Positions 777 through 12,467 of a DNA stretch of 12,467 nt are shown here, in pieces; the first letter of the stretch is position 1, and each line of letters opens with the position of its first letter. The stretch lies in the NCBI GenBank assembly GCA_003221005.1, contig QHTZ01000019.1, forward strand, positions 1 through 12,467. Reading direction: 5' to 3'. The translations under genes were made by a program, and so were the position numbers. Source of the stretch: Gemmatimonadota bacterium (GTDB lineage Bacteria; Gemmatimonadota; Gemmatimonadetes; Gemmatimonadales; GWC2-71-9). Below the pieces are notes generated by a model. It was not told the origin of the DNA, did not search any database, and saw nothing but the letters and a program-made list of their open reading frames with translations.

Positions 777-2096
777 TCACGGTCGCCACGAGGCGCACCG
801 TGTCGCCGCCTGGCCGCCGTCAGCGGCCGGGTTGTTGGTGAGGTTGAGCTGACCCGAGCCGTCGGCGTTCATCACGTAGATCTCAGCGTTGCCGTCGCGG
901 TTGGTGAAGAAGGCGAGCTTCGTGCCGTCGGGCGACCAGTCAGCGCACCAGTCAACGGCCGGGTTGTTGGTGAGCCGCGTGACGGCCAAGCCATCGGCGT
1001 TCATCACGTAGGCCTCCCGGTTCCCGTCGCGGTTGGTGGCGAAGGCGATCCTAGTGCCGTCCGGCGACCAAGCCGCTGGGGTGTCGTCCTCGGCCGAACT
1101 GTTGGTCAGGTTGCGGAGACCCGAGCCGTCGGCGTTCATCACGTAGATCTCACCGTTGCCGTCGCGGTTGGTGTAGAAGGCGAGCTTCGTGCCGTCGGGC
1201 GACCAAACGGCGCAGCAGTCAAAGGCCGGGTTGTGGGTGAGGTTCACGAGGCCGGTGCCGTCGGCGTTCATCACGTAGATCTCGGCGTTGCCGTCGGGGT
1301 CGCTGTAGAAGGTGAGCTTCGTACCGTCGGGCGACCAGGCGTGTGCGAACTCGGGGGCCAGGTTGTTGGTGAGCCGGATGACGCCCGAGCCGTCGGCGTT
1401 CATCACGTAGAGCTCACCGCCGTCGTCGCGGGTGCTCTGGAAGGCGAGCTTCTTGCCGTCGGCCGACCAGACGGCGCAGCAGTCAAAGGCCGGGTTGTTG
1501 GTGAGGTTGAGCTGGCCCGAGCCGTCGGCATTCATCGCGTAGATCTCACCGTTGCGGTGGAAGGCGAGCTTCGTGCCGTCGGGCGACCAGACGGGGAACC
1601 CGTCCGAGGCCAGGTTGTTGGTGAGGTTGAGGACGCCCGAGCCGTCGACCTTCACCACGTAGATCTCACGGTTGCCGTCGCGGAAGGTTTCGAAGGCGAT
1701 CTCGCCGCCGTTGCGCATCGCGGTAATCGCCACCGTGGCCGTGAACGATTTGGTGTTGTCGGTCACCGAGGTGGCGGTGACGCCCAGGTGGGCGTCGGAT
1801 GGCACCGGCGTAGGGGCGGCATAGGTCGTCGTGGTGTTCGTGACATTGGTCAGGCTGCCACACGCCGCTGCGCCGCCGACGCATCCCGTGATGGTCCAGG
1901 TGACGCCCTTCGTGCCAGGGTCGTTCGCAACCATCGCCGTGAAATCCTGGAACCCGCCAGCGAGCAGGCTCGCATTGGTGGGGAGGACGGAAACCGAGAT
2001 CGGCGTAGGGGCTGCGGTCTCGTCCCCGCACCCCGAAACCAGCGCCACTGGAAGGAATCCACACGCAACACACGCAGTCCAGATGCACTGTCTCAT
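777..2096 (-). CDS. Lipoprotein with an N-terminal Ig-like domain and a TolB-like (PD40) beta-propeller
   Basis: ATG 2096 has a GGGAG SD 7 nt upstream and is preferred over 2180. Signal peptide ends in lipobox VSG-C23. Thr-rich Ig-like segment (ISVSVLPTNASL...VTWT...YAAP...VTATS). Seven repeats of about 44 aa, LAF...DGNxEIYVMNADGSG..NLTNNPA.D....WSPDG. Confidence 0.88.
   Translation of the reverse strand: MRQCIWTACVACGFLPVALVSGCGDETAAPTPISVSVLPTNASLLAGGFQDFTAMVANDPGTKGVTWTITGCVGGAAACGSLTNVTNTTTTYAAPTPVPSDAHLGVTATSVTDNTKSFTATVAITAMRNGGEIAFETFRDGNREIYVVKVDGSGVLNLTNNLASDGFPVWSPDGTKLAFHRNGEIYAMNADGSGQLNLTNNPAFDCCAVWSADGKKLAFQSTRDDGGELYVMNADGSGVIRLTNNLAPEFAHAWSPDGTKLTFYSDPDGNAEIYVMNADGTGLVNLTHNPAFDCCAVWSPDGTKLAFYTNRDGNGEIYVMNADGSGLRNLTNSSAEDDTPAAWSPDGTRIAFATNRDGNREAYVMNADGLAVTRLTNNPAVDWCADWSPDGTKLAFFTNRDGNAEIYVMNADGSGQLNLTNNPAADGGQAATRCASWRP
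780..1706 (-). repeat. Seven tandem intragenic propeller-blade repeats of about 132 bp
   Basis: Recurrent gccgtcggcgttcatcacgtagatctc and ggcgagcttcgtgccgtcgggcgacca blocks at roughly 120-135 bp spacing. Confidence 0.85.
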
Positions 2097-2266
2097 GGTC
2101 ATGCTCCCTGCTCGAGCAGCCCCACCGGACTCTCCAGCAGCCAAGCTGTCGACGATCGCTACCGCTCTACTCAATGCCATACTTGCACTCTTGCTGTGGC
2201 GTCGGCTTCCCGTACAGCCTCAGGTGCTGCATGCCTTTCTCCAGCCACTCACGTCGTGACACGGTT

Positions 2267-2294
2267 CCTGCTCCCTGCACCCTGCTCCCTCCAC
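2267..2294. repeat. Intergenic 7-bp tandem repeat (CCTGCTC-like x4)
   Basis: cctgctc cctgcac cctgctc cctccac at 2267, 2274, 2281 and 2288. Confidence 0.55.
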
Positions 2295-2402
2295 TCAACA
2301 GCTCGTCCCGTCCGTCTCCGCGATCCGCGCAGTGGCGAAAGGCTCGAACAGCGGCGGCGCCGCTCCGGCCTCCCGGCTGATTCTTGCGTCCAAGACCCCG
2401 AG

Positions 2403-3635
2403 TCACTCCTGCTGAGGATGAATGACTCCTTCTGTGTCGACAGAAAAGACTCCGGTCGTATACCCTTCCACTGCGCCGTGCTTCAACCACTCCTTGGAAA
2501 TGTGGTGCAGCACCCTGCGCTGCCGTTCCCAGACCATGAAGTGTCCCGCGCAATCAACTCTGAACAACAGCTTGTGGCTGTGCGGGATGGTCTCGTAGAG
2601 GTTGAAGAAGGAGTGCGGGAATTTGGGAAACCCTTCGACTTGCAAGTCCAGTGCGCCGACGATGATGAGCACCGGAACCGAGAGCCTGGAAACCGTCCCG
2701 GAGTTCCAGCCCCATAGAAAGGGCGACCTCACCCGCATCACACCGTCCGAGGGCCCCCACGTGCGTCCTATCTCATCGTTGTCCATGATGGCGCTCCACA
2801 CCACGTCCTGAATCCCGTCCTCTACCTGACCGTCGCACTGGATCTCGGGGTCCCAGCGATTCATGAAGGCGGGTCGGGTCGTCAACGTCATGGGCGTTCC
2901 GGGCTGAGGCAACGCAACGGGTGGATCGAAACCATCGGGCCCGACACCCGCGCGCCCCTCGGGGTTGTAGATCGGAGCGTACAGCAGCAGGCTTTCGACC
3001 TTGTCCGGATGCTGGACGGCGTAGGGGCCGACGCGGAATGAGCCCTGCGACCAGCCTACGAGAGCGACCTTATCCACTCCGCGAATCGCCCTGATGTAGT
3101 CGACCACCGCATCGAGCTCATCCCAATCGCTGTGTGCGTTGATGAGCTGAAACGGGTACGATGGCGGGCACGTGGCGGACAGAGGATTTGGAATCAAGAT
3201 GCTCTGTTGCTGAGCCGTGGGGACGTTGCATGGGTCGTCCATCTTGGGGCGTGGCGACAAGCCTGATCCCTGGAAATCGAGCATGAACACGTCGAAGCCA
3301 CCTGCCTGCGCCAACCAGAGAGCCCAATCATAGTGGTCAGTTCCCAGATCACCGCCCGGCAACACCGGAACGCTGGCTCCGTGGATCATGAGGACGACTT
3401 GGCGAGCGTCCCTATTGCTGGCAACTCGCTCCCGAACGAACAGCTGGACCAAGTCACCGGCGTTCGCCGGCACAGTGGAAATGTGGGGAACCTGATGATC
3501 GATCGTCAGGATCTGGGGGGTGTCGTCGTTGGCGAAGCTCGGCGCTCCGATCCGCGCAGGAAGAGAAGAGTCGCGGCATGCGGCCAGCGTGAGAATGGCG
3601 AACCAGAGTGTCAACCGTGCGCGTCGTGCGTTCAT
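2403..3635 (-). CDS. Alpha/beta-fold hydrolase lipoprotein (esterase/lipase/peptidase-like)
   Basis: ATG 3635 has an AGGAG SD and is preferred over 3710. Lipobox LAA-C20. Motifs: IHG (oxyanion), DFQGSGLS, nucleophile elbow GWSQG, candidate acid in GALD, catalytic His in AGHFMVWE. Confidence 0.9.
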   Translation of the reverse strand: MNARRARLTLWFAILTLAACRDSSLPARIGAPSFANDDTPQILTIDHQVPHISTVPANAGDLVQLFVRERVASNRDARQVVLMIHGASVPVLPGGDLGTDHYDWALWLAQAGGFDVFMLDFQGSGLSPRPKMDDPCNVPTAQQQSILIPNPLSATCPPSYPFQLINAHSDWDELDAVVDYIRAIRGVDKVALVGWSQGSFRVGPYAVQHPDKVESLLLYAPIYNPEGRAGVGPDGFDPPVALPQPGTPMTLTTRPAFMNRWDPEIQCDGQVEDGIQDVVWSAIMDNDEIGRTWGPSDGVMRVRSPFLWGWNSGTVSRLSVPVLIIVGALDLQVEGFPKFPHSFFNLYETIPHSHKLLFRVDCAGHFMVWERQRRVLHHISKEWLKHGAVEGYTTGVFSVDTEGVIHPQQE

Positions 3636-3720
3636 GGTGCATTCTCCTGAGAGTCGTTCGCTGCTCTCCGCTCCCTCCGCTCGGCTCTTTGTTACGTGCA
3701 CAACACCCACTCGCGCCGGC

Positions 3721-4743
3721 CTATTCCGGCCCCTGACCCTCTCGCGCCCGCGTGCTCACAAAGAGGTCGCGGTCAACCGCCGGCGGGGTCGCGACGTTGC
3801 GCGTGAAAAACAGCTCCTCGGTCTGCCGGTGGGAGAAGATGACCGCACCGCTTTCGTCCGCCGCCGTGTTGATCGGGGCACGCAGATTCGTCGGGGGTGA
3901 CCAGGGCGCGAGCACGCTCTCTCGGGTCGAGACCCAAATGTCGTTGGACGTCGTCGTGCCAAGGGGGTCGAGAGTAGAACCGAGCCGGTTCGAGTGGAAG
4001 TAGATCTCCACCCCATTGGGAGCGACGGAGGGGTGCTGGTCGGTCGAATCGGTGTTCAGCTCTGGTACTGGAACCGCCGTGCCCCAGGACCCATCAGGCG
4101 CCTGCTCGCTCACGTAGATGTCGCCGCCGGTGTTGACTGGTAAGGGGTTTCTGTTGAACAAGAGCTGCGGCGCGCCCACGTCGTCGTTTTCGAAGTAGGC
4201 GGGACCGCCTTCAAAGCCTGACGTGTTCACGCCAGCCCCGAGGTTCACCGGCGCCTGCCAGCCGAAGTCGTCATGTACGTTTGCTCGGAACGAAACCCAG
4301 ATATCACCCGACCCGGCTGCCCCCGCTTGACGACCAGAACCGAAGAAGAGCCAGTGCTCGTCCCGCGAGAGCGCCGGGGCGAAGTCAGAGGCAGAACTGT
4401 TGACGGTGGGTCCTAGGCTCACGGGCGTGCCCCACGGACAGCTCGCATCGGCACAGGCGCGCTGGGAGACCCAGATGTCGAGGAGGCCCTGGGTGCCCAG
4501 GGCACCAGGCCGATTCGAGGCGAAGTACAGGCTCAGCCCGTCCTTGGAAAGGACCGCCTGCTGGTCGTTGAAACCCGGGGTATTAATGGCCGGACCGAGG
4601 CTGACGGGCTCGGACCAGGCCGAAAAGTTGGACGTGTGGTTCGCGACAAGCGTCCCCGCGATGCTCCGGTCGGACTCTGTTCGACATCCGACGAGCAATG
4701 CCATGGGGACCAGCAAAGCGAGCCCGGGTGGTGCGGTCTTCAT
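3721..4743 (-). CDS. PD40/WD40-like beta-propeller lipoprotein (paralog A)
   Basis: AGGAGG SD before ATG 4743. Lipobox LVG-C20. About five repeats W..PV.LG..VN....D..P..S.DG..LYF.S.R......DIWVS. Confidence 0.88.
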   Translation of the reverse strand: MKTAPPGLALLVPMALLVGCRTESDRSIAGTLVANHTSNFSAWSEPVSLGPAINTPGFNDQQAVLSKDGLSLYFASNRPGALGTQGLLDIWVSQRACADASCPWGTPVSLGPTVNSSASDFAPALSRDEHWLFFGSGRQAGAAGSGDIWVSFRANVHDDFGWQAPVNLGAGVNTSGFEGGPAYFENDDVGAPQLLFNRNPLPVNTGGDIYVSEQAPDGSWGTAVPVPELNTDSTDQHPSVAPNGVEIYFHSNRLGSTLDPLGTTTSNDIWVSTRESVLAPWSPPTNLRAPINTAADESGAVIFSHRQTEELFFTRNVATPPAVDRDLFVSTRAREGQGPE

Positions 4744-4767
4744 ATATCCTCCTAGTCTCGTGTTCCG

Positions 4768-6546
4768 TCAGCACGTCCCGCTCGTTCCGGTCTGGACGGG
4801 GCAACTCTTGCCGTTCGTCAGCCCTTCGGCGTCCTGCACGGTGAGCTGGACGTTGTACGTCGTGCGCGAGCCGAAGGTCTTGGTGAGTCTGATCCCACTG
4901 CCCGTGGTCCCGTCGCCGAAGTCCCACGACCAGCCGGTCACGCCGTGGTCGTCGCTGGAATTGCCGCCGTCGAACGTGCACAGGCGGCCACCCTTGATCT
5001 TGCCGCAGCTCCAGGTGTAGCGCGCCACCGGCGGAGCGTTCGTGGTTACGGTGGCGACGTTCGAGTACTCGGACGGCCCACCGGCATTCCGGGCCCGCAC
5101 GCGATAGGAGTACGTCGTGCCGACCGTCAGGCCGGTGTTGGTGAAGCTCGTCACGTTGGCGCCGCGGACCGCGATCTGGGAGAAGTCGGTGCATCCCGCG
5201 CCGGTGCAGCGTTCGATCTCGAACCGATCTTCGTTGGTCGCGTTATCGGTCCACACGAGATCGATGCGCATGCTGTTGACCGCAGTGGCGGTGAGCCCGC
5301 TTGGCGGAGCAGGCGCCGGGGGCGGAGGGCTGCCGATGAAGCCGCTGTACAGGAGGTAATCCCGGCCCACCTCCGGCGGCGGGGGCTTGTTGGCCCACCA
5401 GGGATCGTTCCACACGATCTTGCCGATCGTGGCTTGCTCCTTGAGCGCGGCGTCCACGTCGGCAGGCATGGCGACGGGATTCGTCTCGAGATAGAGCGCT
5501 GCCGTCCCAACTACGTGGGGCGTGGCCATCGAGGTGCCACTCCACGTCTCGGTCGCGTTGTCGTCGGCGATGCCCGCCGACGTGACGTTCACGCCCGGCG
5601 CCCAGATATCGAGGCAGCCGCCGCGGTTGGAGAACTCCGCCTCAATGTCGTCGCTGTCGCTTGCGCCCACCGTCGTCGCGGCAGGCGTGCTCGCCGGCGA
5701 ATAGTAGCAGGCATCGTCGTAGTCGTTCCCCGCCGCGACGCCATAGAACACGCCCGCGGTCACGGAGTTGGTCACCGCGTCGTTCAGCGCCTGGGAGTAC
5801 CCGCCGCCGAGCGACATGTTGGCGACCGCCGGGCTCTGGTGATAGGCGGTCACCCAGTCCACGCCAGCGATCACCTCCTCATAGGTGCCCCACCCTTCGC
5901 AGTTGAGCACTCGCACCGAGTAGAGACTCACCGCCTTCGCGACGCCGTAGGTGATGCCGCCGACCGTGCCGGCGACGTGCGTGCCGTGCCCATAGCAGTC
6001 GCTGCCGTCGCCGCCGAGATCTATTTCGTCGATCCCCAGGGACGCCCGGCCACCGAACTCGGAGTGCGAGTACCGGATGCCCGTATCGATGATGTAGACG
6101 TGCACGCCGAGGCCCGTCGCGTTGTACACGTAGCTGCCGCCCAGGGGGAGACTGCGCTGGTCGATGCGGTCCAGGCCCCAGGTGGCGCCCGGCTGCTCCT
6201 CGATCGCGTACGCCAGCTGGTCTTGCTCGACGTAGGCGACGAGGGGGCTCGCGCTCAACGCAGCGGCCCGGTCGGCCGAGAGATTCGAGACCGTGAAGCC
6301 GCGGAGCGCCGCCGTGTAGACCCGCCGCAGCGTGCCGCCATGCTGCGCGGCGAGGCGCTGGGCAACCCCGCGGACGTCGGCCACGTTGCCCCGCAACACG
6401 ACGATGTAGCGGCCCGGGATGACGTGGCGCGGGGCGGCGGTTTGTGACGCGTGCGGCGCTGTTCTCGGTATCGCCGGGGGTGACGTGACGTCCTGACATC
6501 CGATGATACTGGCCGCCAGTAGGGCGAGCGAGCCGATTCTCTTCAC
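4768..6546 (-). CDS. S8 subtilisin-like serine protease (proteinase K/aqualysin type) lipoprotein with I9 propeptide, FN3 and PKD domains
   Basis: GTG start 6546 with a GAGGAAAGGA purine tract upstream. Lipobox IIG-C17. I9 propeptide (YIVVL...GF...VAYVEQD). WGLDRIDQR, catalytic Asp (IIDTG), His (HGTHVAG), oxyanion Asn (AAGN) and Ser (GTSMATP). FN3 (LVWTD...YSYRVRARN) and PKD (WSWDFGDG...VQLTV). Confidence 0.95.
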
Positions 6547-6582
6547 CGGGCAGTCCTTTCCTCAAATCGGGAGTCGTTCCCC

Positions 6583-6610
6583 AGACAGACGCATCGGGGT
6601 AGGGTTCTCA
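6583..6610 (-). promoter_or_regulatory. Variant bipartite ECF-like promoter TGAGAA-N18-GTCT upstream of the S8 gene
   Basis: Minus strand TGAGAA (6610-6605), 18 nt, GTCT (6586-6583). Same geometry as the two copies at 8899-9003. Confidence 0.4.
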
Positions 6611-6621
6611 TCGATCCCTCT

Positions 6622-7571
6622 TCACTTGGCGCTCACCGTGCGGATCGACATCCAGATATCCAGGCTCCCACCGATGCTGCCCGACCGATTGGAAGCGAAG
6701 ACCAGGGTCCGGCCGTCAACCGACAGACCTGGCTGTTGGTCGGCGGCGGCCGTGTTTAGCGGTAGCCCCGGATTCAGGGGCGGGGACCAAGGATCGTGGA
6801 TGTTCTGACGAGTCGACACCCAGAGATCGTTCCCGCCGAGCCCACCGGGGCGGTTCGAGTAGAAAAGCACCTCGCGCCCATCGGTGCGCAGCGTCGACGC
6901 TGCGTCATTGGCCGCGGGGTCGCTCAGTTCCAACACGAGCACGGCAGGGCCCAGCGTCTCCCCGTCGCGCGTCACCGCTGCAAGGTAGATGTCTTGAGAG
7001 GTGCCGGTCGGCCCTCTGTTGAAATAGAAGTTGGCGACCCCACCTTCGGCGCTTTGGAGGTATTCGGGTCCTGCCTCGAACGCCGCCGTGTTCACTTCAC
7101 CGCCCAGAGACACTGGGGGCCGCCACCCGAAGTCGTCCTTGGGATTCGTCCGACGCGATACGTAGATGTCGTTGAGACCCTGGCCACCGGAGCGGCTGCT
7201 GGTGAAAAAGAGGAGGTGCCCGTCAATGGACAGCGAGGGGCCGGCATCACCAGCGGTGCTATTCACGACCGACCCCAAGTTCACGGGCGCGTTCCAGGGA
7301 CACTCACCGCAGTCCCGCTGCGACACCCAAAGGTCGGTGGCGCCGAGACCACCCGGTCGGTCCGAGCTGAAGTAAAGACTGAGACCGTCAGGTGAAAGTG
7401 CGGGGGCCTGCTCCGTAGCAGGAGAATTGACCGGGGCTCCGAGATTCACGGGTGTAGACCACTCGGCGTTCTCGAACAGGTCCCCCCGGAGCTCGACGCG
7501 GATTGGATCGGATCCCTTCCCGCAGGCGAGCAGCAGGGCAAGAGCTGGTGCTCCGTACGCAGATATCTCAT
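6622..7571 (-). pseudogene. PD40 beta-propeller lipoprotein (paralog B) with an apparent 1-nt deletion in the signal-peptide region (pseudogene or sequence error)
   Basis: AGGAGG SD plus ATG at 7571 reads MRYL and then falls out of frame with the propeller. The propeller frame (ORF 6622..7449) extends upstream as YGAPALALLLAC-GKGSD...EWSTPVNLG but has no ATG/GTG/TTG before an in-frame TAG. Adding one G near 7560 gives MRYLAYGAPALALLLA-C17. The body is collinear with 3721..4743. Confidence 0.75.
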
Positions 7572-7632
7572 AGCGCCTCCTCGGCTAATGGTCGCCCACT
7601 GCCTTGCGCGACGCGGATTCCCGCCCTGGCCG

Positions 7633-8871
7633 TTACGGCACCACGCGCGTCGGGGTATACCGGTCGGTCCTGGTCCCGTCACCCAACTGGCCCCAGTAAT
7701 TGCCACCCCAGCAGTAGGCGGCACGCGCAGCCGTGACTCCGCAGGTGTAGGCATAGCCGGCGCTCATCGTGGCGAAGCTCACGCCACCCGACACGGGCAC
7801 CGGGACGGTGCTGCAAGGAATCTCCGTCTGGTCATAAGGACACGATTCAGGACCCGTCGCCGTCCCGACGCCGAGCTGCCCTAGGAGATTATTTCCCCAG
7901 CAGAAGGCCGCGCCGGCGCTGGTGAGCCCGCAAGTGTGTGCGCCACCCGTCGCGAGGGCAGTGAAGCTCAAGCCGCCGGCGACGGCGACCGGGCTGGAGT
8001 TGCTCGTGGTCGAGCCGACGCCGAGCTGCCCTTCGAGATTCAATCCCCAGCAGTAGGCCGCGCCGGCGCTGGTGAGCCCGCAGGTGTGTGCGCCACCCGT
8101 CGCGAGGGCAGTGAAGCTCAAGCCGCCGGCGACGGCGACCGGGCTGGAGCTGCTCGCGGTCGAGCCGTTGCCGAGCCGCCCTGCGAGATTCGATCCCCAG
8201 CAGTAGGCCGCGCCGTCGGCCGTGACCGCGCAGCTATAGTCGTAGCCGACGCTCACCGCGGAGAACGTCAGCCCTCCGGCGACAGCCACGGGCGTTGAGC
8301 TCCAGGTCGTGGAGCCGTTGCCCAGCTCGCCGTTATCGTTCCGCCCCCAGCAGTAGACCGTTCCGTTCGTCGTGAGCCCGCAGGTGTGATAGTCGCCCGT
8401 GGAGACGCTACTGAAGCGCAAGTTTCCGGCGACAGCCACCGGCGTTCCGCTAATCGAGGTCGAGCCGTCGCCGAGCTGGCCCTCGACGTCGTTTCCCCAA
8501 CAGTAGGCCACGCCGGGGGCCGTAATGCCGCAGGAGTACAGGAAGCCCGCGCTCACTGCGGCGAAGCTCCTGCGGCCCGCTACGCGTACTGGGACGGTGC
8601 TGCAAGGCAGAGGTCCCCCGGCCCCGGGACACGTCTCGGAGGTCGTGGTCGGATCAACCCCGAGCTCGCCGTATAGATTATGTCCCCAGCAATAGGCGTC
8701 CCTCGCCGCCGTCACCCCACAAGTGTGAATCCCGCCGGCGCTCACCGCGGCGAAGCTCCGCACCGACGCGACACCGGCAGGATTATCGGAGCAACCAGCG
8801 AGCCACCCCAGCGCGCCCAGCACCGCGATGGCGATACCCCCACGCACACCCCTCATGATATGGGGCTTCAT
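7633..8871 (-). CDS. RCC1/BLIP-II-type seven-bladed beta-propeller lipoprotein
   Basis: GGGAGG SD before ATG 8871 (ATG 8856 is an alternative). Lipobox LAG-C. Seven repeats F..vs.G..HTCGlT..G.AYCWG.N..GQLG.G. Confidence 0.92.
   Translation of the reverse strand: MKPHIMRGVRGGIAIAVLGALGWLAGCSDNPAGVASVRSFAAVSAGGIHTCGVTAARDAYCWGHNLYGELGVDPTTTSETCPGAGGPLPCSTVPVRVAGRRSFAAVSAGFLYSCGITAPGVAYCWGNDVEGQLGDGSTSISGTPVAVAGNLRFSSVSTGDYHTCGLTTNGTVYCWGRNDNGELGNGSTTWSSTPVAVAGGLTFSAVSVGYDYSCAVTADGAAYCWGSNLAGRLGNGSTASSSSPVAVAGGLSFTALATGGAHTCGLTSAGAAYCWGLNLEGQLGVGSTTSNSSPVAVAGGLSFTALATGGAHTCGLTSAGAAFCWGNNLLGQLGVGTATGPESCPYDQTEIPCSTVPVPVSGGVSFATMSAGYAYTCGVTAARAAYCWGGNYWGQLGDGTRTDRYTPTRVVP
7895..8194. repeat. Near-identical 150-bp tandem duplication inside the RCC1 gene
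   Basis: 7895-8044 vs 8045-8194 differ at 9 of 150 positions by manual count, with a 66-bp identical run (7934-7999 = 8084-8149). Confidence 0.9.
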
Positions 8872-8898
8872 GGCGCCCGCCTCCCGAGAGACACCGGC

Positions 8899-8930
8899 GT
8901 GATACGGACCGCAATGGATCGGTTGCTCAG
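8899..8930 (-). promoter_or_regulatory. Putative ECF-type promoter, proximal copy CTGAGCA-N19-TATCAC
   Basis: Minus strand CTGAGCA (8930-8924), 19 nt, TATCAC (8904-8899). Ends 27 nt before ATG 8871. Confidence 0.6.
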
Positions 8931-8971
8931 GGGAGATTCAACGGGGAGCCAGGGACCAGAGCGAGCCGGGG

Positions 8972-9003
8972 GTGATATCGAAGGGCGCGGCCGAACTGCT
9001 CAG
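8972..9003 (-). promoter_or_regulatory. Putative ECF-type promoter, distal copy CTGAGCA-N19-TATCAC
   Basis: Minus strand CTGAGCA (9003-8997), 19 nt, TATCAC (8977-8972). Same half-sites and spacing as the proximal copy but with a different spacer sequence. Confidence 0.6.
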
Positions 9004-9006
9004 TGC

Positions 9007-12000
9007 TTACCGCCCCCTCACCAGGGCGAATCCCGCCCAGAAGAACGGGTGCACCGTCCCGGGCTCACGCAGAGCCACCCGCTGCGCCAGGGCGAGCGCT
9101 TCCGCCTCCGGTCGCCCCGCGGCGAGCTCGCTATAGAACCGCTCCATCAGCCGTGCCGTCGCGACATCGGCGACCGGCCAGAGCGTCGCCAGGACGTTCG
9201 ATGCGCCGGCGTAGAGAAACCCCTGCACCAGCCCCACCCAGTCGTCGCCCGGGGGGACGTCGGCCAGCGCCCCGGCCGCGACTCCAGTCTGACACGCGCT
9301 CAGCACCAGCAGGCGCGCATGCAACGTGAGCCCGAAGACCTCGTGGACCTCCAACCGCCCATCCTGGCCGTCCCCGGCACCGAGCTCGACGAACGAGAAG
9401 AGCGGGTTGTGCTTATTGAGGACGCCGTAGGTGGCGAGGTGAATGATGCGCTGGTCCCCAGCCAGCGCTCGGAACGCCTGCTCCGTCGCTGGCGGGCCGA
9501 CCAGCACGCGCGCCTGCACACCGTAGATCCTCCCGATGGCGGCGACTTCGGCCTGCGAGCCCGGCAATGCACCGGCGCGGGGAGCAAGAGCGAGCACGCC
9601 GGTCCGCGCCGACGGCGCCGCTCGCTCGCGCAGCCGGAGCCACACCGACGCCGACGGCACGTACTCGAGGAGATAGCGCTCGACGAGGAGCTGCTCCGGC
9701 GGACCCGGCCGCAGGAGCGCCGCGAAGGGCAGATAGTGGAGCTCGAGGTGCGGCGCGATGAGCAGGCGCCGCTTGCCCGCGAGCAGGCCGCTCGCCTCCA
9801 CTGGCGCGACCAGCTGCCGATACAGCCGCCGGAGCGACGGCCGCCAGGCCCCGCGCGCGGCCCCCGCCGTGGGGCTCGCGAGCGTGGCGCGCGCGAAATC
9901 CACCGACGCGGTGAGGGCGCTGTGGCTCACATGCAGGTCCAGCGCCACCAGGGTGTCCGTGGTGACGACGAAGACGACCGTGGTCGAGTCGCCCACCAGG
10001 TACTCGAGTAGCGCCTCGTCCGGCGCGAGCGCGGCCATCACCGCGCGCGCGGGCACGATCTCCCCGCGGACGAGCGCCGCGTACGCCGGGTTGGCCTGGC
10101 GCATCGCGATCAGTAGCTCGCCGTAGGCCTCCTGGGCGCGGGCCAGCGCTGCGTGCGTTGCCTCGGTGGCCGCGTCTGCGTGCGCCGGGTCGCGGAGACC
10201 CGATTCGCTGTGAGGCGGAGCCTCGAGCTGCCGGGTCAGCTCCGCCATCCGGCGGCGGAGGTCCTGCTCCCGGGTCGCCAGCCCCCGCCCCGCCTCGCCC
10301 TCCGCGATGCGCCCGCGCACCAGCACGTCGAGCATCTGGCGCTCCCGCAGCCGCTCGCTGGCCTCAAACGCGGTCTCGGTCAGCCCCCGCTCCCGTTCGA
10401 CGAGCGCGAGCTCGACGTACACATCCCACTTGTCCGCCCGAAACGCGGCCCGGTGCTCAGGAAGCGGGAGATCTCCGGAAGCTCGCTCGATCTGCCCAAT
10501 GCCCGCACGCAACTCGCTCGCGGCCTCCGCGAGCGCACCCCGGCGCCGCAGGGCGCCCGCCAGGCCCGCGTGCAGCTGCCAAGCGCTGCTCGCTGGTCGG
10601 GCGCCGAGGCCGGTGATCGCGCGCCGGTAGAGCGATTCCGCCGCGAGTGCCCGTCCCGCGCTCACCTCGAGATCGCCGAGCGTGGCAAGCGCTTCGGCTT
10701 CGTCGTTCGCTGCGCCCAAGGAGCGTAGGGTGTCAATGGCCTCAGCGAAGGCCCGGCGCGCGGTCGCAGTATCTCCGCGCCGCCACGCGGCCAGGCCGAT
10801 CCCCAATCGGATTTCGGCCCTGTCGTGGGGATCGGACGCGCTCGGCAGCAACTGCTCGAGCATCACTTGAGCGCGCCGATAGCTCTCACGCTTCAAGAGC
10901 ACACCCGCCATCCGAAGCTCTAGCCGGAATCGCTCCTCCCGCTCTTCAAGTCCCGCGCCCTGCACGAGCCGCCGAGCGCGTTGGTACTGCCGCTCGGCTT
11001 CGGCCAACTGGTTGAACTCCAACGCGAGATCCGCGCGCGTTCGCGCGAGCGCAGCCAGCGATGCCCCACTCTTCGGCCTGTCGGGGCGTACCGCGAGCGC
11101 TTCGGCCCGCTGCAGCTCGGTGCGGGCGCCCTGCACGTCGCCCATGTGCGCACGGGCCTGCGCGAGCTCCACGTAGTTGTCGATCGCGTTAACCGAGGGA
11201 CCCGAACCGATGCGCCGCATGATCCCTGCGGCCTCCGAAAGCGTCGCCACGGCCGCCGGAAAATCTCCGCGCATCATCGCCAACCTCCCAAGGTCGACGA
11301 GCACCTGCGCCTCGTACATCCGATTGCCCTGCTCGCGATAAATCGAGAGTGCCTCGCTCTCTCTGGCTCCGGCCTCGGCATAGTCACCCTCCCGCTGCGC
11401 GAGGCCTGCCAGATTGCTGAGGATGAGCGCGGCGCCCTCGGCTTCACCGAGACTCCGAGCGGCAGGCAGCGCCGCTTCCCAGGCCCGGCGCGCCTCCGCA
11501 AAGTCGCCCATGGAGGCCGCAACGGCACCGAGATTGGTCTGATCGACCGCGAACCCGACGACGTCTCCGCTCCGCTCCCGGAGCGGCTTGGCGCGGGTAT
11601 AGAAATCGCGTGCGCGCTGCAAGTCCCCCTGCTTCCAGCTCAGGATCCCGAGCAGGCTCCAGACGTTGCCCAACATTCGGTAGTCGCCGACGCGCTCGGC
11701 ATAGCCATGGGCCAAGGTGAGATACGCTTCGGCGCTGTCGGACTGTTGGGCGTAATGGAACCCCGCTCCGATGGCGGTGAGGACGGACGCGATTCCCGCC
11801 GTGTCGGCCAAGGCCTCGTAGCGGCGCAGGCTCTCGCGCCACGCTCGCAGCGCGACGTCGGCCCCGCCACGCACGGCCGCATTGCCCGCGAGTCGGATGC
11901 TGTCCGCGGCAAGGGTCGCCAGGCGGTCCGCTGGTGACAGGGACCGAAAACGCCCGATCTGGCGCACGAAGAAGGAGTCCTGCCAAGCCACGGCGTAGGC

Positions 12001-12231
12001 GCGAGCGAGCCGCTCCGCGGCGATGAGGGCGACCTCGCCGGAATCGCCGCCACGCCCGGCCGCCGCCCGGAGTTGGCTCAACGCCTTGCGCGCGGCATCG
12101 TTGCGCTGCCGCACCCGCTCGACGAGCACCGAGTCGGGCCCGTTGCTCGCGAGCGCGCGGATCGAGTCCACCTCTTGCGGGGCCTGCGCGGCCAGGGCCA
12201 GGACGGGGAGCGCCGTCAGGAGAGCGATCAT
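9007..12231 (-). CDS. TPR repeat + CHAT (caspase/HetF-like, clan CD) domain protein, 1074 aa, probable signal peptide, catalytic His replaced by Tyr
   Basis: ATG 12231 overlaps the upstream TGA (ATGA). Hydrophobic N-terminus MIALLTALPVLALAAQA. Many TPR-like units (LG.....GD...A......AL). AFEASERLRER plus a coiled-coil region. CHAT motifs LLEYLVG, LHYLPFAAL, HLATYG, LLVLSACQTG, LYAGA...TLWPVAD, HPFFWAGF. Confidence 0.93.
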   Translation of the reverse strand: MIALLTALPVLALAAQAPQEVDSIRALASNGPDSVLVERVRQRNDAARKALSQLRAAAGRGGDSGEVALIAAERLARAYAVAWQDSFFVRQIGRFRSLSPADRLATLAADSIRLAGNAAVRGGADVALRAWRESLRRYEALADTAGIASVLTAIGAGFHYAQQSDSAEAYLTLAHGYAERVGDYRMLGNVWSLLGILSWKQGDLQRARDFYTRAKPLRERSGDVVGFAVDQTNLGAVAASMGDFAEARRAWEAALPAARSLGEAEGAALILSNLAGLAQREGDYAEAGARESEALSIYREQGNRMYEAQVLVDLGRLAMMRGDFPAAVATLSEAAGIMRRIGSGPSVNAIDNYVELAQARAHMGDVQGARTELQRAEALAVRPDRPKSGASLAALARTRADLALEFNQLAEAERQYQRARRLVQGAGLEEREERFRLELRMAGVLLKRESYRRAQVMLEQLLPSASDPHDRAEIRLGIGLAAWRRGDTATARRAFAEAIDTLRSLGAANDEAEALATLGDLEVSAGRALAAESLYRRAITGLGARPASSAWQLHAGLAGALRRRGALAEAASELRAGIGQIERASGDLPLPEHRAAFRADKWDVYVELALVERERGLTETAFEASERLRERQMLDVLVRGRIAEGEAGRGLATREQDLRRRMAELTRQLEAPPHSESGLRDPAHADAATEATHAALARAQEAYGELLIAMRQANPAYAALVRGEIVPARAVMAALAPDEALLEYLVGDSTTVVFVVTTDTLVALDLHVSHSALTASVDFARATLASPTAGAARGAWRPSLRRLYRQLVAPVEASGLLAGKRRLLIAPHLELHYLPFAALLRPGPPEQLLVERYLLEYVPSASVWLRLRERAAPSARTGVLALAPRAGALPGSQAEVAAIGRIYGVQARVLVGPPATEQAFRALAGDQRIIHLATYGVLNKHNPLFSFVELGAGDGQDGRLEVHEVFGLTLHARLLVLSACQTGVAAGALADVPPGDDWVGLVQGFLYAGASNVLATLWPVADVATARLMERFYSELAAGRPEAEALALAQRVALREPGTVHPFFWAGFALVRGR

Positions 12232-12467
12232 CGCGCGGGCCCGACGAGCTGAAACTCCACGAGATCCGAGGCCGCCCATCGCCGCCACTCAATCTGCGCC
12301 TCGACCTTCCAGAAATACGTGACACGACGCGCGAGCACGACGGTGTCGGGCAGCGCCACTAAGGTGTCCGCCGTCTCTGCGGTCCATAGGACGACACCCT
12401 CCGTGTCGTATAGCCGCAAGCGGTACCGCTCGGTGCGCGGCACACTCGACCAGACGAGCCGGTCTAC
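12228..12467 (-). CDS. Partial gene, C-terminal beta-sandwich (FN3/Ig-like) domain; possibly the extracytoplasmic part of an anti-sigma factor
   Basis: Frame is open to the window edge: VDRLVWSSVPRTERYRLRLYDTEGVVLW...YFWKVEA...SDLVEF, an FN3-like W...Y.l.l...Y.W.V.A pattern. The stop overlaps the CHAT gene start. The anti-sigma role is inferred from context only. Confidence 0.7.
   Translation of the reverse strand, partial: VDRLVWSSVPRTERYRLRLYDTEGVVLWTAETADTLVALPDTVVLARRVTYFWKVEAQIEWRRWAASDLVEFQLVGPAR

Follow-up and report, generated by a model that had tools for sequence, protein, structure and literature searches.

In type III-E CRISPR, the Craspase assembly reportedly joins Csx29, a protein that combines tetratricopeptide repeats with a CHAT domain (TPR-CHAT), to Csx30 and an RpoE-like sigma factor, and it is said to be cytoplasmic, RNA-guided and bound to Cas7-11. 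In the sigma-E pathway of Escherichia coli, the separate periplasmic protein RseB binds the periplasmic domain of the anti-sigma factor RseA and gates regulated proteolysis. The locus considered here lies on a complete contig of 12,467 bp (QHTZ01000019.1, C76 in our numbering; called the window below) from the assembly GCA_003221005.1 of a Gemmatimonadota bacterium. It encodes a TPR-CHAT protein next to a putative anti-sigma factor, and its best comparator is the DdvA/DdvS system of Myxococcus xanthus, which fits it better than the Csx29/Csx30 pair does. In the portion of the DdvA paper available to us (PMC11506125), DdvA is described as a TPR-CHAT domain of the periplasm that is fused to an anti-sigma factor and is called the only characterised anti-sigma factor with a TPR-CHAT domain, and DdvA-like proteins are reported only in Myxococcota and one Comamonas species. 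A search limited to an open-access library found no paper on the present module in Gemmatimonadota.

We consider it probable, though by no means secure, that the contig carries the distal part of a conserved Gemmatimonadales envelope-signalling module that works by the mechanism proposed below. As read from gene order and homology, the module consists of a sigma factor of the extracytoplasmic function (ECF) type, which would lie off the contig, followed by a predicted single-pass zinc-finger anti-sigma factor, a predicted exported TPR-CHAT protein, a candidate ECF-type promoter and a cassette of putative surface lipoproteins. The parts on which the argument rests are the following.

12228..12467, minus strand: 3′ end of the putative anti-sigma gene, encoding an FN3-like periplasmic domain; 79 codons and a stop (translation, homology and fold model)
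9007..12231, minus strand: putative exported TPR-CHAT protein of 1074 aa, probable pseudoprotease (Pfam, model and ATGA overlap)
8896..8930, minus strand: ECF-type promoter candidate CTGAGCAACC-N-GTCCGTATCAC, with -35 GAGCAAC, -10 TCCGT and a 13-nt spacer; 29.7 bits

The DdvA/DdvS system, as far as it is set out in the available portion of PMC11506125, resembles the module seen in relatives in pairing an ECF sigma factor with an anti-sigma factor that has an N-terminal zinc motif and one membrane span, and it resembles the window in having an extracytoplasmic TPR-CHAT domain of the separase/Craspase fold. Its single-polypeptide form is also shared by three of the relatives (L100, L107 and L113). 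In the window, by contrast, the TPR-CHAT protein would be a separate exported protein, and the FN3-like domain stays on the anti-sigma factor. Whereas the same source gives DdvA an intact dyad (H862/C907) and places DdvA/DdvS with a CBASS/CRISPR island, the window protein has a Tyr for the catalytic His, and the neighbouring target genes would encode surface lipoproteins. Furthermore, a PDB sequence search detected no sequence similarity between the window TPR-CHAT protein and DdvA, and the module sigma factor, unlike DdvS, carries some 85 extra residues between regions 2 and 4. Because the parts are not one polypeptide, the dyad is not intact and the regulon is different, we regard the locus as a variant of DdvA/DdvS and not as a member. 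It would work like DdvA/DdvS, as a two-protein relative, and is not an entirely new kind of system.

Craspase shares with the module a TPR-CHAT protein that is linked to the control of an ECF-like sigma factor, and its Csx29 (structures 7y9x and 8eey) is the best structural match of our TPR-CHAT model (Z 32.5 over 564 residues). Unlike Csx29, however, the window protein is predicted to be exported, its partner would be a membrane-bound zinc-binding anti-sigma (ZAS) factor, and its protease dyad is broken. None of the eight proteins of the series in the window matched a Cas family in Pfam, a search that did not extend to cas genes in the rest of the genome. RseB may serve as a functional analogy only, since it is neither a TPR nor a caspase-fold protein and is not homologous to the protein described here. 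A further comparison is with the ECF54 sigma factors, which, according to the portions of two papers available to us (PMC8999054, PMC7826278), have genes for CHAT-, subtilase- and carboxypeptidase-domain proteins in their neighbourhood and thus resemble the module in linking an ECF sigma factor to CHAT and subtilase genes. We set ECF54 aside as the group of the module sigma factor because ECF54 members, as described there, are actinobacterial and have no anti-sigma factor, whereas here a ZAS anti-sigma factor is found in Gemmatimonadota.

Gene order in the window and in relatives

Eight genes follow one another on the minus strand of the window, namely the open-ended frame at 12228-12467, the TPR-CHAT gene at 9007-12231 and, after a spacer of 135 nt from the TPR-CHAT stop, six lipoprotein genes. 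An earlier sequence-only reading of this DNA had described a co-oriented array, and we found all of its parts, with every cassette gene on the minus strand. The G+C content across the window ranges from 61 to 74%. Genes were called with our own caller, which uses a codon-usage score and trims some starts, so that promoter-to-start distances are approximate. The assembly (2.79 Mb in 141 contigs, rated 93.9% complete) breaks inside the first gene of the series, the partial anti-sigma gene, and the genes upstream of it are not readable in the window genome because the contig ends there. A tblastn search of the other contigs for the sigma factor and the N-terminus of the anti-sigma factor gave only matches of 28-30% identity to other ECF pairs.

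The partial gene at the right edge appears to encode the FN3-like periplasmic end of a zf-HC2 anti-sigma factor. Pfam gave no family match for the 79-residue product, but its AlphaFold2 model (44 sequences, pLDDT 94.2) is a seven-stranded sandwich, whose best Foldseek matches are FN3 domains (EphA2 FN3: TM 0.73, root mean square deviation 2.3 Å) at an E-value of only 0.012, with none at 0.001 or below; the earlier description of this open frame as FN3-like agrees with these matches. A PDB sequence search with the periplasmic half of a relative's anti-sigma factor returned no matches. The product is 45-57% identical to the C-termini of zf-HC2 proteins in relatives, and its homologues there are the C-terminal domain of proteins of 190-275 aa. 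An N-terminal HxxxCxxC motif is present in all 43 homologues, and 33 of the 43 have a hydrophobic span under a strict rule with a 19-residue window. The full-length layout in relatives is a zinc motif (HxxxCxxC), a hydrophobic span, a proline-rich linker, in which the proline-rich stretch is conserved, and the 80-residue domain. The proposal that the partial gene is the C-terminus of a membrane anti-sigma factor is borne out in the relatives, whose homologues carry the zf-HC2 motif and, in most cases, the span. The anti-sigma and TPR-CHAT genes overlap in an ATGA at 12231-12228 (...CGC GCG ATG ATC... against ...GCG CGA TGA), and the coupling claimed by the sequence-only reading can be read directly there.

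Our first search queried 41 genomes, the window genome (G000) and 40 relatives, with the 79 residues of the partial product and gave matches in ten, most of which adjoin a match to the TPR-CHAT protein. Fifteen regions from relatives were collected and their genes scanned with Pfam. All seven co-oriented loci among them (L023-L029) have a Sigma70_r2/r4 gene, then a partner gene of 180-275 aa with a C-terminus that matches the partial product, and then the TPR-CHAT gene, and the partner matches zf-HC2 in all but one of the seven (L026). The sigma gene adjoins the CHAT gene in 13 of the 15 loci, the exceptions being L034 and L035. A wider survey scanned one genome per species and gave 133 relatives, from which 79 loci were kept (41-75% identity) and were annotated by our own gene calls together with hidden Markov models built from the first loci and a six-frame check. 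Nearly all of these loci come from Gemmatimonadota metagenome-assembled genomes (MAGs), and related public records are labelled Gemmatimonadales or Gemmatimonadaceae. Among the 60 loci whose upstream DNA spans 1.5 kb or more, 53 have both a sigma and an anti-sigma gene at most 2.6 kb upstream of CHAT on the same strand. Two of the remaining seven have an anti-sigma gene only and five have neither, although in four of these five the pair lies further upstream with other genes inserted between. In the relatives, the TPR-CHAT gene invariably has the regulatory pair on one side and the lipoprotein genes on the other. The recurring link of CHAT homologues to ECF pairs and lipoprotein cassettes is thus present in the surveyed neighbourhoods. 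As to the ECF sigma factor that had been placed upstream of the window genes, it is there in relatives (the 53 of 60 loci), but none was found in the window assembly, whose contig ends before that point.

Three relatives encode the anti-sigma factor, the membrane span, FN3 and TPR-CHAT in one uninterrupted open reading frame (ORF).

L100:3909-7400; L107:9263-13198; L113, ORF ending at 13183: natural anti-sigma/TPR-CHAT fusions, in Gemmatimonadota/Longimicrobiales MAGs

These fused ORFs are about 1270-1360 codons long and have no internal signal peptide, and all three have Tyr at the position of the catalytic His. Since TPR-CHAT follows the membrane span in them, the domain would lie outside the cytoplasm, and the fusions also argue that the anti-sigma factor and TPR-CHAT are functionally tied.

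Several other features of these loci were observed. The module sigma factor is long, about 257 aa (e.g. L038:4372-5148), with about 85 residues between the region-2 and region-4 matches; in a sister clade the sigma factors are about 170-233 aa, and the -35 flank is slightly different. One or two Ser/Thr protein kinase genes lie directly upstream of the module sigma gene in some loci (L023:7498-11045, L027:4603-6975, L033:10243-12882), which hints that the sigma factor may receive a second input. In L031, L032, L033 and L037, the CHAT proteins are more distant and have a membrane anchor at the C-terminus; their genes are convergent to the sigma/partner pair with overlapping 3′ ends, which is a different layout of the same three parts. 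The window genome itself has a paralogous TPR-CHAT gene with an intact His-Gly motif (L035, 5497-12963 on contig C8 of G000), whose neighbours encode a PKD-domain protein and a Ser/Thr protein kinase; we saw no sigma gene in that locus.

The TPR-CHAT protein

The TPR-CHAT protein begins with a signal-like segment, MIALLTALPVLALAAQA, followed by about 700 aa of helical repeats and a CHAT domain at about 730-1074; Pfam recognises CHAT (E 2.3e-60) and TPR_12 (E 5e-26). Its AlphaFold2 model, made from a 51-sequence alignment (pLDDT 88.7, pTM 0.81), shows about 700 residues of paired helices and then an alpha/beta domain. Foldseek matched the model to separase (6.7e-16), DdvA (8rot_A, 2.7e-14) and Csx29 (4.6e-14), and VIA-align, which gave the Csx29 score cited above, returned Z 27.6 for yeast separase and Z 23.3 for residues 373-991 of DdvA (root mean square deviation 6.1 Å, 601 residues aligned). 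In contrast to these structural matches, the PDB sequence search with the same protein did not match DdvA and found only TPR proteins and Csx29, the latter at an E-value of about 4e-4. The hydrophobic signal-like N-terminus and the position of the domain after the membrane span in the fusions together indicate that the protein is exported.

Two codons of the CHAT domain bear on whether it could cut.

9427..9429, minus strand: codon TAC for Tyr935, at the catalytic-His position of CHAT/caspase-fold proteases (alignment with homologues)
9292..9294, minus strand: codon TGT for Cys980, the retained catalytic-site Cys in LSACQT (conservation)

Tyr935 stands in the sequence HLATYG, which the earlier reading had named and which is indeed there, at a position where 11 of 15 aligned homologues have His, and Cys980 is kept. 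Across the window and 79 relatives (n=80), this position is occupied by Y in 55, F in 10, N in 5, H in 4, R in 3, S in 2 and L in 1, so that 76 of the 80 clade members lack the catalytic His. The Cys of LSAC(Q/E)T, by contrast, is kept in all 79 clade sequences that extend as far as its position. The loss of the general base, with free replacement, makes the protein a probable pseudoprotease.

The candidate promoter

Promoters recognised by ECF sigma factors lie upstream of the regulon genes and are bipartite, with a fixed spacing of some 16 nt between a -35 element that contains AAC and a -10 element that contains CGT. The spacer between the TPR-CHAT gene and the cassette contains a site that fits this layout, with GAGCAAC-N13-TCCGT giving 15 nt between AAC and CGT. 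The site (8930-8896) ends 25 nt upstream of the start of the RCC1 gene, the first of the cassette, and the consensus drawn from the equivalent spacers of relatives is cTGAGCAA(C/T)-N13-TCCGTnTCAC, the spacer being 13 nt in 49 of 59 instances. A second, weaker copy of the motif precedes it.

8969..9003, minus strand: upstream copy of the motif, bipartite but degenerate, CTGAGCAGTT...TTCGATATCAC; begins shortly behind the CHAT stop; 11.3 bits

The tandem motif of the sequence-only reading is accordingly there in both copies (9003-8969 and 8930-8896), but only the second is strong (29.7 against 11.3 bits). With a weight matrix trained on other genomes and the window left out, 8930-8896 is the only site of at least 18 bits on either strand of the 2.79-Mb assembly, the next best reaching 17.5; a shuffled-genome control gave one site of at least 18 bits and none of at least 20. 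In 21 of 74 loci of the relatives, the first 400 nt behind the CHAT stop contain a site that scores 14 bits or more, as compared with none of 234 opposite-strand control windows; these scores are inflated by the training of the matrix on the operon strand of the same loci. Such sites often overlap the stop codon itself. The plain-pattern strand count and the scans of the window and its genome, from whose training the window was left out, are free of that inflation. Over the 79 loci, the plain pattern GCAA[CT]-N13-TCCGT has 48 instances on the operon strand and three on the opposite one, and 27 of the 48 operon-strand instances lie within 300 nt upstream of one of the five genes that follow CHAT (+1 to +5).

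The base before GCAA differs between clades: all eight sites from the short-sigma clade have C there, and 27 of the 28 from the long-sigma clade have A. As the motif rarely precedes the sigma gene, the pairing of the promoter with the module sigma factor would rest on co-location and on this one covariation. Beyond the two copies, no motif of at least 8 bits was found on the cassette strand, including the stretches before the other cassette genes. The promoter-linked cassette that had been proposed can therefore be upheld for the ECF-type site before the first gene, whereas the other five genes lack the motif.

A looser pattern with a spacer of 13-17 nt was tried and matched a conserved C-terminal coding stretch of CHAT (…NPxTxHPFYW…) in about 14 loci. 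These instances were dropped from the list of 59 and from the training set, and none was matched by the 13-nt pattern on which the counts are based.

The lipoprotein cassette

The six genes downstream of the promoter candidate, in the order in which they would be transcribed, are as follows.

7633..8871, minus strand: putative RCC1-type beta-propeller lipoprotein, 412 aa, lipobox LAGC; opens the cassette behind the promoter (Pfam WD40_RLD E 1e-96, RCC1 repeats)
6622..7571, minus strand: putative PD40 (TolB-like) beta-propeller lipoprotein, frame-disrupted, lipobox LLAC (LLLAC) (Pfam PD40 E 3e-28)
4768..6546, minus strand: putative subtilase lipoprotein, 592 aa, lipobox IIGC (Pfam Peptidase_S8 E 8.9e-38, fn3, PKD_4)
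3721..4743, minus strand: putative second PD40 beta-propeller lipoprotein, 340 aa, lipobox LVGC; start with Shine-Dalgarno (Pfam PD40 E 2e-11)
2403..3635, minus strand: putative alpha/beta-hydrolase lipoprotein, 410 aa from ATG 3635, lipobox LAAC (Pfam Abhydrolase_1 E 7e-12, Hydrolase_4)
777..2102, minus strand: putative third PD40 beta-propeller lipoprotein, 441 aa from ATG 2102, lipobox VSGC (Pfam PD40 E 6e-61, six repeats)

For the hydrolase and the last PD40 gene, Pfam was run on the longer ORFs (2403-3710 and 777-2180). The subtilase has an I9 propeptide, an S8 domain with DTG, HGTH and GTSMA (GTSMATPH) motifs, from which the Asp-His-Ser triad motifs can be read in the translation, and then fn3 and PKD domains; the hydrolase has a GWSQG nucleophile elbow. 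A lipobox, for which the pattern is [LVI][ASTVI][GAS]C, was read by eye near the N-terminus in all six products (LAGC, LLAC, IIGC, LVGC, LAAC and VSGC), but a stricter lipobox heuristic flags only three of the six genes and in the last gene picks an upstream TACVAC instead of VSGC.

Six lipobox-bearing genes, four for propellers, one for a subtilase and one for a hydrolase, had been claimed, and all the lipoboxes and families are there, except that the first PD40 gene is frame-disrupted. In that gene, ATG 7571, which has a Shine-Dalgarno sequence, opens a frame of 41 codons that differs from the lipobox/propeller frame, and the latter (6622-7449 and upstream) has no start codon before GTG 7449. 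Independent soil contigs have the same sequence at the disrupted site, and one of them adds a 1-nt deletion at 6889. Because these contigs share the sequence, the gene may be decaying in the population, as opposed to showing an assembly slip.

The intergenic gaps in the cassette are about 10-85 nt except for about 300 nt before the last gene, and terminator-like sites in the window are at chance level (six found, 5.4 expected). It is plausible that all six genes are transcribed together.

Of 65 genes that directly follow CHAT in relatives, 57 encode a Big_5 Ig-like domain and 47 a propeller of the RCC1, PD40 or Kelch type, and the second gene encodes a propeller in 25 of 51 and now and then an M6 peptidase, PPC, PAP2 or alpha/beta hydrolase. 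By a crude lipobox rule, 98 of the 188 downstream genes encode lipoproteins, as compared with 41 of the 364 remaining genes of these loci. The recurrence of lipoprotein cassettes beside the CHAT gene thus extends to the families of the first downstream genes, which are themselves preceded by the ECF-type motif. Cassette content differs even among the closest relatives, with fn3 proteins following CHAT in L038, L073 and L111 and RCC1 doing so here. At about 2000-5000 the G+C content is 0.61-0.65 and thus lower than in the CHAT gene, where it is about 0.70 (the regions noted being about 2000-5000 and 6600-8900), and codon-usage scores are lower for the hydrolase, two PD40 and RCC1 genes. These differences, together with the variable cassettes of close relatives, suggest that cassette genes have recently been exchanged. 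Within the RCC1 gene (7930-8150, minus strand), two adjacent blades are nearly identical in DNA, with …SPVAVAGGLSFTALATGGAHTCGLTSAGAA… occurring twice, and several joints lie inside the gene in soil contigs, which is what one would expect if an internal duplication were recent or the repeats recombined.

Left edge of the window and occurrence in soil

A second ECF sigma/anti-sigma pair, which the sequence-only reading did not mention, lies on the plus strand at 3-708, convergent to the last cassette gene. It comprises the C-terminal 139 aa of an ECF sigma factor (3-422, Sigma70_r2/r4_2) and an 82-aa protein (460-708) that has an HxxxCxxC motif and no Pfam match. The left-edge sigma factor has no close homologue in the 79 related loci, its best matches there being to module sigma factors at 23-31% identity.

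The organism or close strains are common in sampled soils. At least 92% of the sampled words of 7600-9600 are present in 18 soil-metagenome DNA runs, of which eight may be the source of the DNA, and 20 runs from 17 studies contain any part of this region. One soil contig extends 278 nt past position 12467, and another 33 nt. RNA-library contigs from two soil metatranscriptomes contain four short stretches identical to the window (9374-9634, 8246-8413, 1665-1991 and 474-686), the first three of which fall in the CHAT gene, the RCC1 gene and the last PD40 gene. Such cover is lacking for most of the window, and the matching contigs may stem from DNA carry-over, so that they are a weak hint of transcription at most.

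Proposed mechanism and alternative explanations

The earlier interpretation is supported at the level of architecture, as seen in relatives, and the gene order, the fold of the TPR-CHAT protein and its lost His would be compatible with the following scheme. The sigma factor would be held at the membrane by the anti-sigma factor, and the TPR-CHAT protein would be made in step with the latter by virtue of the ATGA overlap. Once exported, the TPR-CHAT protein could dock on the periplasmic FN3 domain of the anti-sigma factor, on its proline-rich linker, or on both; since Tyr stands in place of its catalytic His, it would serve there as a non-catalytic co-receptor. The complex of anti-sigma factor and TPR-CHAT would be changed by a cue from outside the cytoplasm, most probably a protein or peptide that binds to the TPR solenoid, after which other envelope proteases of the site-1/site-2 type would degrade the anti-sigma factor. 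The freed sigma factor would transcribe from GAGCAAC-N13-TCCGT at 8930-8896, turning on the RCC1 lipoprotein gene and, by probable read-through, the PD40, subtilase and hydrolase lipoprotein genes.

A more specific version of this scheme may be put forward tentatively. The His-less TPR-CHAT protein might be a dedicated periplasmic receptor that clamps the FN3 domain or linker of the anti-sigma factor in its dead active-site cleft, the conserved Cys being kept for this substrate-like binding, and might shield the anti-sigma factor from site-1 cleavage until the TPR solenoid is engaged by a foreign protein, whose source might be, for example, a phage, a predator or a polymeric substrate. Once released, the sigma factor would drive a private, single-promoter regulon of fast-diversifying surface lipoproteins.

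Several observations weigh against the module and mechanism preferred here. The sigma gene and the N-terminus of the anti-sigma factor are absent, by tblastn, from an assembly rated 93.9% complete, and for this reason the module of the window organism is reconstructed from its relatives. The strict conservation of Cys980 is not explained by a purely non-catalytic role. As regards the promoter, just 3 of 54 loci have the motif in front of the sigma gene, so that the usual argument from ECF autoregulation is missing; the motif is present for only one of the six cassette genes, the first; part of its score in relatives is a product of training; and its clade-specific flank could reflect shared descent and not co-adaptation. 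Finally, one PD40 gene of the cassette is frame-disrupted, and the last gene is separated from the hydrolase gene by about 300 nt.

The invariant Cys keeps alive the explanation that the TPR-CHAT protein is an active protease, in which Cys980 would work with some other general base to make a signal-induced site-1 cut in the periplasmic linker of the anti-sigma factor, as a two-protein form of the autoproteolysis model for DdvA. The retention of Cys980 in 79 of 79 sequences suggests selection on the active-site pocket, His is still present in four of 80 clade members and in all 11 more distant homologues, the conserved proline-rich linker could be the cleavage site, and self-cleavage is proposed for DdvA in the available portion of PMC11506125. 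Yet we think such an enzyme unlikely, since 76 of the 80 members have Y, F, N, R, S or L at the position of the general base, a pattern that fits lost catalysis, all three natural fusions have Tyr, and no alternative conserved His was seen near the site, H941 not being conserved. The protein might also be an output of the switch instead of a part of it. It would then be a scaffold or chaperone in the periplasm, responsible for the assembly, sorting or anchoring of the Ig and beta-propeller lipoproteins, and would merely be co-transcribed with the anti-sigma factor. TPR solenoids are generic protein-binding platforms, the gene always sits between the regulatory pair and the lipoprotein genes, and in four loci a promoter-like site precedes the anti-sigma/CHAT pair and not the sigma gene. 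We give this explanation little credence, because three independent in-frame fusions and the stop/start overlap tie TPR-CHAT to the anti-sigma factor and not to the lipoprotein genes, the cassette is served by a promoter of its own behind the CHAT stop, and its content varies widely in close relatives whereas the trio of sigma factor, anti-sigma factor and CHAT is constant.

The adjacency of the cassette to the module could, in principle, be incidental, with the promoter read by a different sigma factor such as the ECF sigma factor at 3-422. That factor and its anti-sigma partner are convergent to the last cassette gene, and the scarcity of the motif before the module's own sigma gene would be accounted for. 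We regard this as very improbable: the motif follows CHAT in the related loci, in which the left-edge sigma factor lacks a close homologue, and the -35 flank of the motif tracks the clades of the module sigma factor. On balance, a co-receptor that belongs to the regulatory trio remains the reading that we prefer.

Implications

With this reading, the logic of DdvA would recur as a two-gene version that is widespread in soil Gemmatimonadota. The loss of the His in most members argues that the caspase-like domain signals by binding and not by cutting, at least in this clade. The window and its relatives provide a clade-wide count at the His position, three natural fusions, a promoter consensus whose match in the window is unique in the genome, and a census of downstream domains. 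Since the partners are separate proteins, binding and cleavage can be tested with purified parts, and the output can be followed from a promoter that is short, well defined and unique in the genome, with the regulon visible next door. The question left by the work on DdvA, that of the role of TPR-CHAT in the release of the sigma factor, thereby becomes directly testable. If the more specific receptor version were true, Gemmatimonadota would have turned a protease-type anti-sigma factor like DdvA into a two-piece, non-proteolytic receptor.

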